Below are positions 52,277 to 56,780 of a stretch of 64,000 nt of DNA, one piece after another. The notes under the pieces were generated by a model. It had not been told where the DNA came from. It saw only the letters and a program-made list of their open reading frames with translations, and did no database searches. The stretch covers positions 433 through 64,432 of the IMG/VR virus record IMGVR_UViG_3300033144_007704. One strand, 5' to 3'. The position numbers were made by a program, and so were the translations under genes. Every line of letters begins with the position of its first letter. Position 1 is the stretch's first letter. Source of the stretch: a virus. Taxonomy: Duplodnaviria > Caudoviricetes.

Positions 52277-55174
52277 ATGATGAAAAAAATATTAGGAATT
52301 TTATTAATATTACTGCTTACAGTAAGTGTAATACAGGCAAAAAGCGTCGAGAGAATAGATAAGCTTATTACGGCTCTTATTACCTCGAATGCGGCTGATG
52401 GAGACATAACTCTAGATCCTCTTGGAACCGGAAAGGTTGTGGTTGCGGGAGATATTGATATCAGTAATGATGTTCTGCTTACAACAGGCGGAGCACTCAG
52501 CTGGAATGCTGCTGATTTAATGACGCATTCGGAACATAAAATGACATTATCAGAATTCACAACTTGGGACTTTGGAGCAGTTGCGACAATGGATTTTAAT
52601 GGAGCTACAAATTTCACAAGCGCTGCTGCTGGATGGGTTTTTGACGGAATATTACAGATTGATACAATTACAGACGTAGGCGACGATGCAACTTTATCGT
52701 TCTCTGGAACAAATGGAATTGATGTAGAAAACGCTGCAACTGTTGGAACATTGGTATCGGATGCTACAATAGTGGCTACAACTAATATAACAGCAGGTGT
52801 ATCTGGTTCAAGTGAAGTTAGACCGATCTTTTCAATAATTGCAGACGCCGATTCCGATGCTGAAGACACAGACGAAACAATTGCTTTAACTCTAACCCCC
52901 AATGCCGATCCGACTCTTGCGATTTGGGCATTTACTACAACTCAATCTGCTGGTATAGATTTTAATATGCCTATTACCGCTACTTCGCTTATTACAGATG
53001 GAGTGCTTCAAACATTTGGAGCTTTCACTTCTCTTGGTATTGACGATAACGCTGATGCTACTGCAATTACTATTGACATTACAACTGAGAAAGTTCATTT
53101 TTCTGCTGACGCTGATGTAGTTGGAGATTTAACGGCGGGAACTATTACGAGCGATGCAGGTGTGTCTGGAACAACTATCACGGCTTCAACTGGTTTTGCT
53201 CTTGGAGATGGTGATTACGTTGGAATAACAGGTAATGAAACGCTTATATTCAATGCTGCTGGCACAATAGAAGTAGTTGGCGCCGATGTAGATTTTAATG
53301 GCAATTCAATTAAAAATGCTCAACTTGAATTATCTCTGTCACAAGGTCTTGCTTGGGACCAAGCAAATGATACTTATGAAAGGCTTGGCTCATTAGCAGG
53401 AGTATCAACGTCAGTAAGTGCTGGTGATGATTATCTGCCAATTCAATCTGATATGAAACGCTGTCTGTTACAGGATGACGGAACGGTCAATTATTATATT
53501 GATGCAGATGACCCAATTATGAAGGATGGAACTACAGTAGCTGTATCTGGTTCCGCAACGAGTCAGCCCGAATTTTTTACAACCGAAGAAGATAGAATAT
53601 TAACAGGCGGAACAAGTGATTGGACAAATGCTGCTGCCGGCGATGCTTATGCTTCTTTTGACAAGACAGAAAATTTGAGTCTAACTGCTGATGCTATTGG
53701 TGATTATTGCTATATTACTTTTACAAATATTGGAACCACTCTTGAAAGTGGCAAAAGGTATGTATTAGAATATGATTATACACAGACAGTAGCAGGATTT
53801 GAATTTAAACTTACTGGAGTTACGGGACAAACAATTGGAACTGCAGTTGCAGGAACTGATAAAAAATTATATTTTACTGCTGTAGAAGATTATGCTACTA
53901 CAGACCAATTACAAATAATGGCAACAACAGCAGCTAATTCACAAGGAGATTTCGACAATTTCAGCTTGAAATGCTGTCAACTATTAGATGCAGGCGGTGA
54001 TTTTGTAACTGATGGCGTAGTAGCTGGTATGTATATCCGAAACATTACAGATGATCCTGATAGCTACGCTTACATTATGCAGGTAGAAGCGACAAAACTG
54101 ACCTTGAATACGGACATTTTCCCAGATGGCACTGATGCTTATGAGGTTGGAACTGCTGATTTTAGTGGGACTGACGGGCAGGTTGTGGTTCAAATTGATA
54201 AATTTTACTATAAACAATATAAAACAGGTAATATTTTCTATTGGTATGTTTCTAAATATGATTTAGCCGGTTTCGATTTACACCCTGCCTTTTGGAAGGA
54301 CGGACAGGAAGTAGATTATAGATATTATTCAGCTTTTGAGGGAAGTATGTATGATGCAACTGCGGGCGGGATGACATCTAAGGCAAATATTCCTGTATCA
54401 ATTTATGCAAGCGGTGATAAAATGTGCTCGGTAGCTGGGCAGTGGGCAAAGACAAACGAAACAAGGACAGAATATCGAGCAATGGCTGCTGAAAGAGGAA
54501 CTGGCTGGAGACAATTGGATTATTATCTGCATTCTGCCGTGCAATTGCTTTATCTTATCGAGTATGCCGACTTTAATTCGCAAGTAGAAATCGGAATGGG
54601 CAGAACAGAATTATCTGATGGAGTTTGGGAAGCAGACTCTTATATTGGATTTACGGGATATAGTGTTTCCGATGGAAATGGCACTAATTCTTTGTCTAAC
54701 GGAACTACGATTGGTTATCTAACCGATTATATGACATATCGTGGAATTGAAAATTTTTACGGCAATGTGTGGAAAATGTTAGATGGCATTACCTGGGATG
54801 GACGTTGGATAGATCCTCCAGGCGTTGCGGCAGCTCAACCTGTTTATGTTACTAATAATGTCTCGTATTTTCAAGATGCAGCAAGGGTTAATATGCAACA
54901 TCTCTGCAACGCAAGTTATATCGGAACCAGTGCAGGATATATTGGAAATCTGGAAAATGTAACAGGATTTATACCAAGTGCAACTGGCGGAAGTGAAACA
55001 ACGAAAGTATGTGATTACTATTATCAATACTCAGAATCGGGACGAGATTACTGGCGGGTGGTTCTGGTCGGTGCGGCTGCGGATTACGGTTCGAGGGCGG
55101 GCGTGGTCGCGTTGGCGGTGTATAACGCTTCGTCGAAGGATAGTGTGGATATCGGCGCTCGGCTTTGCTTTTAA
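52277..55174 (+). CDS. DGR target: fiber/adhesin-like protein with signal peptide and C-terminal C-type-lectin-fold variable domain
   Basis: MKKILGILLILLLTVSVIQA; Thr/Ala/Asp/Gly-rich shaft; LHPAF, YRGIENFYGNVW and terminal IGARLCF; VR at the 3' end. Confidence 0.9.
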   Translation: MMKKILGILLILLLTVSVIQAKSVERIDKLITALITSNAADGDITLDPLGTGKVVVAGDIDISNDVLLTTGGALSWNAADLMTHSEHKMTLSEFTTWDFGAVATMDFNGATNFTSAAAGWVFDGILQIDTITDVGDDATLSFSGTNGIDVENAATVGTLVSDATIVATTNITAGVSGSSEVRPIFSIIADADSDAEDTDETIALTLTPNADPTLAIWAFTTTQSAGIDFNMPITATSLITDGVLQTFGAFTSLGIDDNADATAITIDITTEKVHFSADADVVGDLTAGTITSDAGVSGTTITASTGFALGDGDYVGITGNETLIFNAAGTIEVVGADVDFNGNSIKNAQLELSLSQGLAWDQANDTYERLGSLAGVSTSVSAGDDYLPIQSDMKRCLLQDDGTVNYYIDADDPIMKDGTTVAVSGSATSQPEFFTTEEDRILTGGTSDWTNAAAGDAYASFDKTENLSLTADAIGDYCYITFTNIGTTLESGKRYVLEYDYTQTVAGFEFKLTGVTGQTIGTAVAGTDKKLYFTAVEDYATTDQLQIMATTAANSQGDFDNFSLKCCQLLDAGGDFVTDGVVAGMYIRNITDDPDSYAYIMQVEATKLTLNTDIFPDGTDAYEVGTADFSGTDGQVVVQIDKFYYKQYKTGNIFYWYVSKYDLAGFDLHPAFWKDGQEVDYRYYSAFEGSMYDATAGGMTSKANIPVSIYASGDKMCSVAGQWAKTNETRTEYRAMAAERGTGWRQLDYYLHSAVQLLYLIEYADFNSQVEIGMGRTELSDGVWEADSYIGFTGYSVSDGNGTNSLSNGTTIGYLTDYMTYRGIENFYGNVWKMLDGITWDGRWIDPPGVAAAQPVYVTNNVSYFQDAARVNMQHLCNASYIGTSAGYIGNLENVTGFIPSATGGSETTKVCDYYYQYSESGRDYWRVVLVGAAADYGSRAGVVALAVYNASSKDSVDIGARLCF
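55055..55171 (+). repeat. DGR variable repeat (VR)
   Basis: 117 bp, ungapped match to TR; 26 mismatches, 22 opposite TR adenines. Confidence 0.95.
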
Positions 55175-55210
55175 AATATCATGAAAAATTTATATAGGTT
55201 TTTATGCCAG

Positions 55211-55327
55211 CGGGTAGTTCTGGTCGGTGCGAATGCGAATAACAGTTCGAAAGCAGGCGTTTTCACGTTGAATGTGAATAACACTTCGTCGAATAATAAT
55301 GTGAATATCAGCACTCAGCTATGCTTA
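55211..55327 (+). repeat. DGR template repeat (TR)
   Basis: AAT/AAC-rich copy of VR; flanked by inverted TTTTATGCC / GGCATAAAA; downstream hairpin TTGGC-tctc-GCCAA. Confidence 0.95.
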
Positions 55328-55437
55328 TTTTTAACAAATATACGGCATAAAATCCTTGGCTCTCGCCAAAATACAAAGCAACCCTCACTACGTGTTAGTA
55401 GGTTAATTCTCGAAAGCTCGGAGGTGAAATAAGCAAA

Positions 55438-56493
55438 ATGAAGAGATATGGTTATTTATACGAAAAGATTTACGACATTGAAAACATTAAGCTTGCTCAT
55501 AAAAATGCGAGAAAGGGGAAATTGCATTATAAGGAAGTGAGAATGGTGGATAAAAATCCAGATAAGTATTTCGATGAAATCCATAAGATGCTTAAGAATA
55601 AAACATACAAAACATCTAAATATGAAATTATTCAAAGAAAAATGGATAGTGGAAAAGTAAGGGAGATATATAAACTTCCATATTTCCCTGACAGAATTAT
55701 ACATCACGCAATTATGCAGATTACAGAACCTATCTGGAGAAAGACGTTAATAAGAGATACTTATTCATCTCTGAAAGGCAGAGGTATTCACGATGGTGTT
55801 AAAAGGATAAAGAAAGCTTTAAGGGGTAAGGAAAATACTAAATATTGTTTGAAAATGGATATAAAAAAATATTATCCAAGTATTGATAATGGTATTTTAA
55901 AACAAATCATCAGAAAAAAAATAAAAGACCCTGATTTATTGTGGCTTTTAGATGAGATAATTGATAGTTCAGAAGGCGTTCCTATTGGGAATTATTTAAG
56001 TCAATATTTTGGGAATCTATATTTAACAGGATTAGATCACGAATTAAAAGAAAAATATAGATTAAAATATGTATTTCGTTATTGTGATGATATTTGTATC
56101 TTACATAAAAGCAAAGAATTTTTACATTCTATCAGAGAAGTAATTGAAAAATACTTAATAAAATTAAAGCTCAATCTTAAAGAAAATTGGCAAGTGTTCC
56201 CTATTAATATTCGAGGACTTGATTTTCTTGGCTATAGATTCTTTCACGATTACATTCTATTAAGAAAATCAATTAAAATGAAATTCATAAAGAAAATAAG
56301 AAAGATAAACAAAGATTGGAAAAATTTATCTCATACTAAGGTAATTAACAGTATAATGAGTTATTGTGGTTGGTTTAAATATGCTAATTGTAAAAATCTT
56401 GCAAATAAATATATTGATAATAAGATATTTTGGATAGTGAAATATATATCTAAAAACAATAATATATCAAATCCGTTACAAGGATTAAGATGA
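55438..56493 (+). CDS. DGR reverse transcriptase
   Basis: KVREIYKLPYFPDRIIHHA, KGRGIH, LKMDIKKYYPSID, PIGNYLSQ (DGR GxxxSQ signature), RYCDD, GLDFLGY. Confidence 0.95.
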   Translation: MKRYGYLYEKIYDIENIKLAHKNARKGKLHYKEVRMVDKNPDKYFDEIHKMLKNKTYKTSKYEIIQRKMDSGKVREIYKLPYFPDRIIHHAIMQITEPIWRKTLIRDTYSSLKGRGIHDGVKRIKKALRGKENTKYCLKMDIKKYYPSIDNGILKQIIRKKIKDPDLLWLLDEIIDSSEGVPIGNYLSQYFGNLYLTGLDHELKEKYRLKYVFRYCDDICILHKSKEFLHSIREVIEKYLIKLKLNLKENWQVFPINIRGLDFLGYRFFHDYILLRKSIKMKFIKKIRKINKDWKNLSHTKVINSIMSYCGWFKYANCKNLANKYIDNKIFWIVKYISKNNNISNPLQGLR

Positions 56494-56780
56494 AAAAGTT
56501 TTCAGATTTTTCAAAAGAGAATGTTCTTGATGGCGAGAAAATGGGAATAGATAATATTCTTAATAAAGAAATATTAATATTAGGATATTCAATCAAAAAT
56601 AGTAGATATAGCGATAATGGTAATGGTAAATATTTAACTTTGCAGATTGAGAAGGAAAGCAAGAAATATGTTATATTCACGGGAAGTGAAGTTCTTATAG
56701 ACCAAATAGAAAAATATAATTCTGAGATTCCATTCCTGACAACAATAAGAAAAATAAATAAGTATTATTCATTTACGTAA
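56490..56780 (+). CDS. Candidate DGR accessory protein (beta-rich, not Avd-like)
   Basis: ATGA overlap with the RT stop; MKKFSDF...ILNKEILILGY...IFTGSEVLIDQ...PFLTTI...YYSFT. Confidence 0.6.
   Translation: MKKFSDFSKENVLDGEKMGIDNILNKEILILGYSIKNSRYSDNGNGKYLTLQIEKESKKYVIFTGSEVLIDQIEKYNSEIPFLTTIRKINKYYSFT

Follow-up and report, generated by a model that had tools for sequence, protein, structure and literature searches.

The window, a stretch of 64,000 nt (positions 433 to 64,432 of IMG/VR record IMGVR_UViG_3300033144_007704) that makes up nearly all of a single 64.4-kb virus record, carries a diversity-generating retroelement (DGR) whose target is a phage-encoded, tail-fibre-like protein with a conserved export-type leader at its N-terminus. 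Both the DGR and the leader are real. The source is a novel tailed phage, and almost all of its open reading frames (ORFs) lie on the plus strand.

The retroelement and its activity in relatives

A direct repeat pairs positions 55054-55170 with 55210-55326, at an offset of 156 nt. As the upstream copy forms the final 39 codons of the target ORF, it was assigned as the variable repeat (VR), and the adenine-rich copy as the template repeat (TR). Gapless alignment over 119 nt revealed 26 mismatches, 22 of them at TR adenines (16 A to G, 4 A to T and 2 A to C in the direction TR to VR) and the remaining four being T to G; with 34 adenines in the 119 nt of the TR, Fisher p for the adenine bias was 9.5e-12. 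The reverse transcriptase (RT) encoded downstream matched PF00078 at 1.7e-16 and phrog_1423 ‘reverse transcriptase’ at 3.3e-117, and gave only sub-threshold matches to group II, retron and Drt families in NCBIfam. Its sequence holds the motifs IGNYLSQ and YCDD, which we take to mark DGR-type RTs. The features by which a DGR is recognised, a mismatch pattern at TR adenines, an adjacent RT, and a VR at the 3′ end of the target within a lectin-fold domain, are thus all present. A first-pass annotation, made from the sequence alone, had described target with VR, TR and RT in tandem, and all parts were found at the positions claimed; its hand count of substitutions was reproduced exactly. The same annotation called the DGR complete, which holds for TR, VR, RT and target but not for an Avd gene, as none was found: the 37-nt gap between VR and TR contains no ORF, and the 96-aa ORF behind the RT had no Pfam match even at E ≤10. 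Not all DGRs possess Avd.

At the 3′ end of the VR neither a GC-rich initiation of mutagenic homing (IMH) sequence nor a hairpin was recognised, the only palindromes downstream being AT-rich; the VR/TR homology extends to the stop codon there, with differences at adenine sites only. Folding of the RNA of TR plus spacer gave a z-score of 0.28, hence no significant structure, and neither a second VR nor a second lectin domain was found within the 64,432-nt contig.

Mismatches between VR and TR were likewise concentrated at TR adenines in related loci (24/24 in L002, 23/26 in L003, 21/25 in L014, 21/21 in L015 and 20/21 in L020). Variation among close relatives was investigated in the 90%-identity protein cluster of P0007 and L002, which bears a signal like that of the window target. 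Thirteen members have a complete C-terminal region, and 12 were used after the divergent P0187 was set aside; P0188 and P0193 (frameshifted or fragmentary) and the L002 ORF (a duplicate of P0182) had been left out of the count. Among the 12, 1 of 501 core columns varied vs 22 of 39 VR columns; with P0187 included, 24 of 500 core columns varied. All 13 VR columns with at least four different residues fall on TR codons with adenine at position 1 or 2, of which there are 19, so that this signal-bearing cluster is hypervariable at TR-adenine codons only. The VR is therefore not invariant across relatives; invariance there is what the first-pass annotation had named as fatal to its claim. The window target is the single member of its own 90%-identity cluster, and the DGR of the window phage may be active as well.

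The four T to G changes, at VR positions 55105, 55106, 55117 and 55138, stand at non-adenine TR positions and are private to the VR of the window. At three of these positions T is retained in both of the other TRs and in all four other VRs; at the fourth (TR 55261), L003 carries G in both TR and VR. Column 681 of the P0007 cluster shows a Leu/Arg polymorphism at a CTA-templated codon, which needs a T to G change beside an adenine; it recurs in three of the 14 sequences aligned there, and P0002 also has Arg. Such T to G changes may reflect RT errors at U or selection.

An ORF of 93-96 aa that starts on the RT stop codon (ATGA overlap) was present in all four of the related DGRs examined, with 67-70% identity, exceeding the conservation of the target. 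The AlphaFold2 (AF2) model of the 96-aa product (mean predicted local distance difference test, pLDDT, 83.3) is beta-rich and resembles an oligonucleotide/oligosaccharide-binding (OB) fold, not a helical bundle; its matches to OB folds were weak only (RPA70, HIN, Ta0387 OB; best E 0.026). From this model it is a candidate nucleic-acid-binding accessory factor of non-Avd type that might replace Avd. In L001 and L005, relatives of the target (83% and 86% identity) directly precede a homologue of the 116-aa protein that is encoded further downstream in the window, with no TR or RT between them (L001 1-1964; L005 1-2704), and in L005 an HNH-like ORF of 192 aa fills the place of TR and RT. Therefore, the cassette of TR, RT and OB-like ORF is either gained and lost as a unit or located elsewhere in the L001 and L005 genomes.

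The target: leader, shaft and lectin tip

The target ORF, read from the first ATG (965-aa call, 52277-55174), begins with MMKKILGILLILLLTVSVIQAKS. An AAGGAG sequence lies 6 nt before the second ATG (52280), a better Shine-Dalgarno spacing, and the database gene call for the target also starts at this second Met (964 aa). An in-frame stop is located at 52250, the next Met is residue 82, and within the first 80 codons just one further possible start was seen, a GTG at codon 55, with a purine-rich stretch ending 2 nt before it. As the start is backed by a Shine-Dalgarno sequence and no further Met occurs before residue 82, the hydrophobic N-terminus is genuine and not the product of a mis-called start; the truly downstream start against which the first-pass annotation had cautioned was not found.

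Leaders were called by explicit heuristic criteria (charge of the n-region, length of the uncharged run, and presence of a (-3,-1) site). Counted from the second Met, the predicted Sec-type signal peptide of the target, MKKILGILLILLLTVSVIQA, has the n-region MKK (+2), a 17-residue uncharged hydrophobic run, and (-3,-1) sites after residue 20 (between VIQA and KS) or 22. No lipobox was found, there being no Cys in residues 1-30. Between the target and its relative in L004, 13 of 20 leader residues are identical and hydrophobic character is kept at 16 of 17 positions, and the next 40 residues are identical at 33; such drift with kept hydrophobicity is typical of signal peptides. Of 15 homologues fetched for the N-terminal part, 11 share the leader design in spite of different domains behind it; the other four are a fragment, P0006, P0013 and P0009. 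In P0009 the Mtd_N N-terminus of tail fibres takes the place where no attachment domain was recognised in the target by Pfam, PDB sequence and ESM Atlas searches. Within the P0007 cluster, an otherwise identical body is found behind four different complete N-terminal modules, each of which bears a leader; this points to recent exchange of N-terminal modules with the leader always kept. P0007 and P0181-P0194 share a body of ~540 aa, and their N-terminal modules differ.

In all 23 tabulated leaders an n-region of +2 or +3 precedes an uncharged run of 13-25 residues, and one or more (-3,-1) sites fall at residues 14-28. Among 35 leader-positive representatives of the wider family described below, a (-3,-1) site is present in 33 and Gln at +1 in 15, vs a Gln background of 2.5%. 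Gln at +1 is the Bacteroidetes Q-rule for substrates of signal peptidase I, described for phage cargo proteins in the available sections of PMC10367356, and its enrichment points to cleavage by signal peptidase I. Taken together, the features of the N-terminus, its conservation, the neighbouring genes and the family statistics give good support to a Sec-type signal. The signal peptide claimed in the first-pass annotation is thus upheld in its leader features and conservation, and export itself we infer from these: the target is probably engaged by Sec and translocated, and its leader is more likely cleaved than left as an anchor.

The leader is followed by a shaft and a tip. Residues 22-330 were modelled as an intertwined homotrimer with a score of 0.76, vs 0.00 for the best of three controls, with contacts from residue 24 onwards, partner pLDDT of at least 78, and agreement between runs in at least 85% of contacts. 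The mark was reached by 20 of 30 solved pairs vs 1 of 23 single chains in a calibration that used two copies and their own alignments, and that is therefore only roughly valid for the target trimer. Trimerisation of the shaft is supported by these models, in which fibre trimers may score through likeness to solved ones. Shaft modules are common to long fibre-like proteins, both leader-bearing and leaderless. No Pfam or NCBIfam match was obtained for the N-terminal part, and the best ESM Atlas score for residues 1-350 (0.89) was below the useful range. Searches of PDB sequences with the target and with the 928-aa and 667-aa proteins encoded upstream of it yielded no match at E ≤1.

Residues 627-965 matched phrog_5302 ‘tail protein’ at 2.2e-77, and the AF2 model of residues 617-965 (60-row alignment) had a mean pLDDT of 91.6. 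Its best PDB match in Foldseek was TaqVP of Thermus aquaticus (5VF4; E 6.3e-10, probability 1.0, TM-score 0.52, 15% identity), with formylglycine-generating enzymes, Mtd and TvpA matching far more weakly.

The tip-domain family comprises 2,573 representatives at E ≤0.001. Of its best 149 representatives, the 139 with an initial Met include 35 leader-positive ones. When IMG/VR was scanned using the tip-domain alignment, 570 stretches were confirmed and the 80 best loci retained. In 76 of these the 5′ end is complete; 10 such targets bear a leader when read from the first start, and 13 do so if any start within 40 codons is allowed. The leader is less singular than the first-pass annotation implied, as roughly one-sixth to one-quarter of the tip-domain family bear one. 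Family members that are cultured or named (Methanosarcina virus MetMV, crAss-like cr85_1) are leaderless.

Leader-positive targets tend to have leader-positive neighbours: 22 of 99 ORFs beside leader-positive targets vs 33 of 489 beside leader-negative ones were flagged (odds ratio 3.9, p 1.3e-5; 9 of the 76 loci, where the target ORF ran off the locus, were dropped). Four loci (L015, L048, L059 and L074) have three to five leader-positive neighbours each within 4 kb of the target, and in other contigs the position of such clusters with respect to head and connector genes varies. A conserved leader-bearing protein of ~150-160 aa is encoded directly 3′ of a leader-bearing lectin-tip protein in L030 (7139-7624), L034 (7351-7806) and L048 (7281-7736), representing a second kind of small conserved partner with the mature start ...TAESKT.PP.IQ...; the L034 copy had no Pfam match. 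Pfam searches with 10 leader-bearing neighbours from other viral loci gave DUF6488 alone, below cut-off (26.4 vs 27 bits).

Neighbouring genes, contig and host

Table 1. Positions of the DGR parts, target domains and other features (window coordinates unless a locus is named)
Feature	Position	Strand	Description
DGR target gene	52277..55174	+	965 aa from first ATG, 964 aa from ATG 52280
Predicted Sec-type signal peptide	52280..52339	+	heuristic scans; sequence in text
Fibre shaft	52340..54124	+	trimer model of residues 22-330
C-terminal TaqVP-type C-type-lectin-fold tip presenting the VR	54125..55171	+	AF2 and Foldseek
VR	55054..55172	+	final 39 codons of target; repeat and gapless alignment
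TR	55210..55328	+	34 adenines, many AAY codons
83-aa ORF over TR	55181-55432	+	TR read in frame; most likely not a gene
TR-RT spacer	55329..55437	+	presumed part of TR RNA
RT	55438..56493	+	351 aa; PF00078 and phrog_1423
96-aa ORF	56490..56780	+	start overlaps RT stop (ATGA)
ORFs homologous to the 96-aa ORF, behind RT	L002 3075-3356; L014 8364-8645; L015 8313-8594		window copy 56490-56780
116-aa protein	56791..57141	+	signal/anchor-type N-terminus, Lys-rich tail
297-aa protein	57138..58031	+	signal-type N-terminus, Gln after predicted site (...FCFA followed by QTKN)
256-aa protein	61774..62544	+	signal-type N-terminus; C-terminal end ...GIGYKF
141-aa gene	51844..52269	+	stop 7 nt before target start
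928-aa protein	48514-51300		Cys-rich CxxC...CxxxxC near residue 120-160, long Glu/Lys-rich region
Amidase endolysin	1204-2019
Collagen-like tail fibre	62558-end		leaderless; contig 3′ end
TnpB-type transposase genes	2-904 (-), 4638-6093, 21547-22719, 60308-61480		IS200/IS605/IS607-like

Three more leader-type proteins (116, 297 and 256 aa) are encoded within 10 kb of the target in the window (Table 1). The 116-aa protein is conserved next to the target, on its downstream side, in L001, L002 and L005, including those in which TR and RT are lacking. A C-terminal aromatic beta-signal is typical of outer-membrane beta-barrels, and judged by its two ends the 256-aa protein looks like an envelope-bound, outer-membrane-barrel-like phage product with the same kind of leader. 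The product of L001 3793-4458, with a signal-type N-terminus and the end ...GFEFSF, resembles a small outer-membrane beta-barrel. These two proteins may be Lom/Ail-like cargo or anchors. The 96-, 116-, 141-, 256- and 297-aa proteins and the large structural-looking ORFs had no match in Pfam or NCBIfam.

Upstream of the target, the 141-aa protein resembles the C-terminal domain of a second leader-bearing fibre in L004 (63.8% identity over 94 aa). L004 keeps the gene order of the window (459-, 928-, 110- and 141-aa genes) and has this second fibre in addition, whose mature N-terminus resembles that of the window target (52% over 31 aa). The gene for the 928-aa protein lies after the terminase region and is conserved in L004 and in the Cloacimonadota genome G149 (40% identity); no match for its product was found in family or PDB searches. 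The order in L002 is target, TR, RT, 93-aa ORF, a leader-bearing protein of 104 aa, a membrane protein, a leader-bearing protein of 208 aa, a 92-aa ORF and a lysozyme-like gene. In L003, a more distant phage, it is a J-like tail protein, a leaderless 421-aa target, TR, RT and holin-like genes. Thus the tip also serves ordinary tail fibres, and the leader-bearing form keeps a small leader-bearing partner adjacent.

The contig encodes a large terminase (TerL; phrog_675, 5.9e-51), which is 23-25% identical to those of the cultured phages listed, as well as a repair exonuclease. Family searches of the contig recognised no capsid, portal or tail families and no integrase. No terminal repeat was found on the contig, which may therefore be incomplete. 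A single tRNA-His (GTG) gene is located at 18205-18281. One of the TnpB genes is preceded by an IS607-type serine recombinase (4638-5198), and another is located among the genes of the exported-protein cluster. The possibility that the contig starts with an invertase-switched tail fibre was considered and rejected, as the minus-strand ORF 2-904 and the ORFs at 4638-6093 are TnpB/IS607-type transposase genes.

The sole match among species-representative genomes was a 2.7-kb contig of a Candidatus Cloacimonadota metagenome-assembled genome (MAG), with a target homologue 86% identical. A relative of the terminase occurred in 4 of 232 Cloacimonadota genomes, the best 50% identical (E 4e-178) and within a syntenic block. 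This block, which corresponds to 38.9-51.3 kb of the window (667-aa, 338-aa, TerL, 459-aa and 928-aa homologues), is on contig C1 of G149, a 134.6-kb contig binned in a Cloacimonadota genome, of which the region 1-80000 (L010-L013) contains ~69 kb of phage-like genes on one strand. A prophage within a chromosome was considered for C1 and rejected, as the first 69 kb resemble a phage contig binned into a MAG; C1 is probably a large relative of the window phage and not chromosomal DNA, and it supports the host only weakly. Omp85/BamA was present in 4/4 Cloacimonadota genomes checked, as expected of diderms, with leaders of similar style and ...FQFGTTF ends. From these matches Cloacimonadota is tentatively assigned as the host.

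Destination of the fibre and relation to known systems

The reading we favour is that a tailed phage of a diderm host, tentatively of Cloacimonadota, carries a DGR whose RT would copy the TR RNA with adenine-specific errors, the cDNA replacing the final 39 codons of the target. The target would have a cleavable Sec signal where related fibres carry a virion-attachment domain; its trimeric shaft would begin directly after the cleavage site, and its TaqVP-type tip would display the variable residues. It would cross the inner membrane of the infected cell alongside the phage envelope proteins (116 aa, 297 aa and the barrel-like 256 aa) and stay at the envelope, held by the conserved mature N-terminal end. 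There it would act as a tunable binder that masks or occupies a variable surface ligand, in exclusion, or mediates adhesion, and not as the receptor-binding protein (RBP) of the virion. We rate export, retention at the envelope and binding of a variable ligand, for exclusion through receptor masking or for adhesion, as slightly better than an even chance. Of the two fates that the first-pass annotation had offered, addition to virions outside the cytoplasm and display on the infected cell, we thus prefer the one at the envelope. An envelope role is favoured by the co-encoded envelope-type proteins, the conserved small partner, the clustering of leaders, the varying position of these clusters and the separate leaderless tail fibre; given this collagen-like gene, other fibres exist on the virion.

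Several points weigh against this reading. The target gene follows late structural-looking genes at 7 nt, and in L002 it is near lysis genes, the classic place of a receptor-binding fibre; in L003 a leaderless homologue takes the same place behind a J-like tail protein. The tip is a common phage ‘tail collar fiber’ tip (BFVD models at E 1e-28 and TM-score ~0.8, 38 matches at E ≤0.001), and the mature N-terminal motif, which is common to paralogous fibres (L004, L015), fits docking on a virion adaptor equally well. No route across the outer membrane is evident. The leader heuristic is permissive, the 33 of 489 ORFs flagged beside leader-negative targets amounting to 6.7%. An RT lies within 6 kb of 3 of 13 leader-positive vs 44 of 67 leader-negative viral targets; leader and DGR mostly do not travel together, and their combination (window, L014, L015, L020) is the rarer case. 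Finally, the contig may be incomplete, most structural genes lack a recognisable family, and the host was assigned from binned contigs, Cloacimonadota being the one phylum searched.

Among the alternatives, the best placed, and still unlikely, is that the leader is not cleaved and tethers a periplasmic fibre in the inner membrane as a signal-anchor (type II topology), where it might for example intercept the tails or DNA-delivery devices of incoming phages. The h-region is indeed long, its 17-residue uncharged run reaching 25 in homologues, the neighbouring 116-aa protein is of the same design with a Lys-rich tail, and the trimer model starts right after the hydrophobic segment. However, a small-residue (-3,-1) site occurs 14-28 residues from the start in every one of the 23 leaders inspected, and the enrichment of Gln at +1 (15 of 35 family members) argues for cleavage by signal peptidase I.

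Next in order, and improbable, is that the exported fibre still ends on the virion: it would reach the periplasm, lose its leader, and dock on particles as a trimer by its conserved N-terminal end, either at the membrane or after the envelope has been opened by holin, endolysin and spanins, so that the DGR would tune host range as in BPP-1. This would suit a gene that is co-oriented with the late genes 7 nt behind them, as the last fibre before lysis, and whose VR is the only one in the 64.4-kb contig. It would also suit a tip shared with bona fide tail collar fibres and with P0009 and its Mtd_N N-terminus, as well as leader-bearing paralogues that share a mature N-terminal motif like alternative RBPs on one adaptor. 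Yet the literature search turned up no tailed phage that adds a Sec-exported fibre to its virion, a leaderless tail fibre gene is present in the contig, and leader-positive clusters at varying places relative to head and connector genes are more like cargo modules.

Improbable as well, and third in order, is a conventional cytoplasmic tail fibre whose hydrophobic N-terminus is structural, buried in the baseplate or acting on membranes during infection, and does not serve export. The tail-fibre-like tip and shaft and the position of the gene are in keeping with this, but an N-terminus of MKK, 17 hydrophobic residues and an AxA site is a design recognised by Sec or the signal recognition particle (SRP), and the same design is found on the co-encoded barrel-like protein and on host BamA. 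Moreover, the leader drifts while staying hydrophobic, unlike a packed structural element, and the family members from cultured phages (MetMV, cr85_1) have no such N-terminus. To a non-phage origin, with the contig as cellular DNA or another mobile element and the target as an ordinary cellular exported DGR target, we give scarcely any credence: most structural genes lack a recognisable family and there are four TnpB-type transposase genes, but this is a single 64.4-kb contig with nearly all genes on one strand, a large terminase, an amidase endolysin, a collagen-like tail fibre, and synteny with other viral contigs.

The premise of the first-pass annotation, that phage DGR targets are of cytoplasmic type and exported targets are cellular, agrees with the available sections of two surveys. 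The phage DGR proteins studied by Benler 2018 had no detectable transmembrane regions or signal peptides (PMC6199706), and Roux 2021 gave signal peptides and transmembrane domains for cellular targets only, with tail-structure annotations for viral ones (PMC8144416). No phage DGR target or tailed-phage fibre with a functional Sec signal peptide was found in the literature, the per-target supplements of Roux 2021 and Benler 2018 lying outside that search. Exported lipoprotein targets are described in cells and in integrative and conjugative elements (ICEs) by the sections available of Wu 2018 (PMC5758913) and of a Bacteroides study that also calls TaqVP prophage-encoded (bioRxiv 10.1101/2024.11.15.621889).

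Like the window, BPP-1 has a phage-borne TR, VR and RT, adenine-specific mutagenesis, and a VR in the C-terminal lectin tip of a trimeric fibre (Mtd). Unlike BPP-1, the window target has a Sec-type leader and a TaqVP-like tip, with Mtd (1YU1) matching only at E 0.2; no Avd was found, a 96-aa OB-like ORF follows the RT, and no GC-rich IMH or hairpin was recognised. TaqVP, the best structural match of the VR-bearing domain, has a chain of 381 residues that matches the tip only, whereas the window protein adds the leader and a shaft of ~600 residues. TvpA (2Y3C) is a weak structural match to the tip (E 0.63). It is a lipobox lipoprotein. As far as the sources at hand describe them, Legionella LdtA, Treponema TvpA and the Bacteroides type V pilus tip adhesins likewise combine Sec-dependent export with a DGR-diversified C-terminal lectin fold; LdtA and the Bacteroides tip adhesins are lipobox lipoproteins, whereas the window leader has no Cys. 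These cellular exported targets are encoded by chromosomes or ICEs, whereas the window target is on a phage and has a tail-fibre-like body.

In architecture the closest analogue of the window target is the mosaic adhesive trimer (MAT) fibre of Bdellovibrio bacteriovorus, for which the available sections of Caulton 2024 describe a signal peptide, a conserved N-terminal domain, a meandering trimer and a variable tip (PMC10769870). Shared with the window target are a signal peptide, an N-terminal part common to paralogues, an intertwined trimeric shaft and an exchangeable tip outside the cytoplasm, a likeness of architecture only. As reported there, the MAT fibres differ in being cellular, in varying through a 21-gene repertoire and tip swapping with no DGR, and in a beta-rich N-terminal domain of ~130 aa, vs a modelled trimer from residue 24 in the window; MAT fibres are capped by S74 or other tips. 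The prophage cargo of Porphyromonas gingivalis (PMC10367356) is, like the window target, phage-encoded with Sec signals, which obey the Q-rule, and is proposed to modify the host envelope; in the sections available it is not described as DGR targets or as fibre-like, unlike the window target.

DGR targets have so far been sorted into cytoplasmically assembled phage tail fibres and exported cellular adhesins; here an export-type target belongs to a phage DGR. Judged from the family survey, leader-bearing targets appear to be a recurrent, overlooked class, and the conserved OB-like ORF behind the RT offers a candidate substitute for Avd. It is possible, though doubtful, that some tailed phages infecting diderms of the FCB group (Bacteroidota, Cloacimonadota and kin) make a whole class of Sec-exported, tail-fibre-like trimers, here tuned by a DGR, that would be either mounted on particles outside the cytoplasm or displayed as a self-diversifying envelope ‘antibody’ masking receptors or capturing rival phages. 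If export is true, phage hypermutation may serve roles other than host range, such as envelope display, exclusion or adhesion, or else virion assembly would include an extracytoplasmic step.

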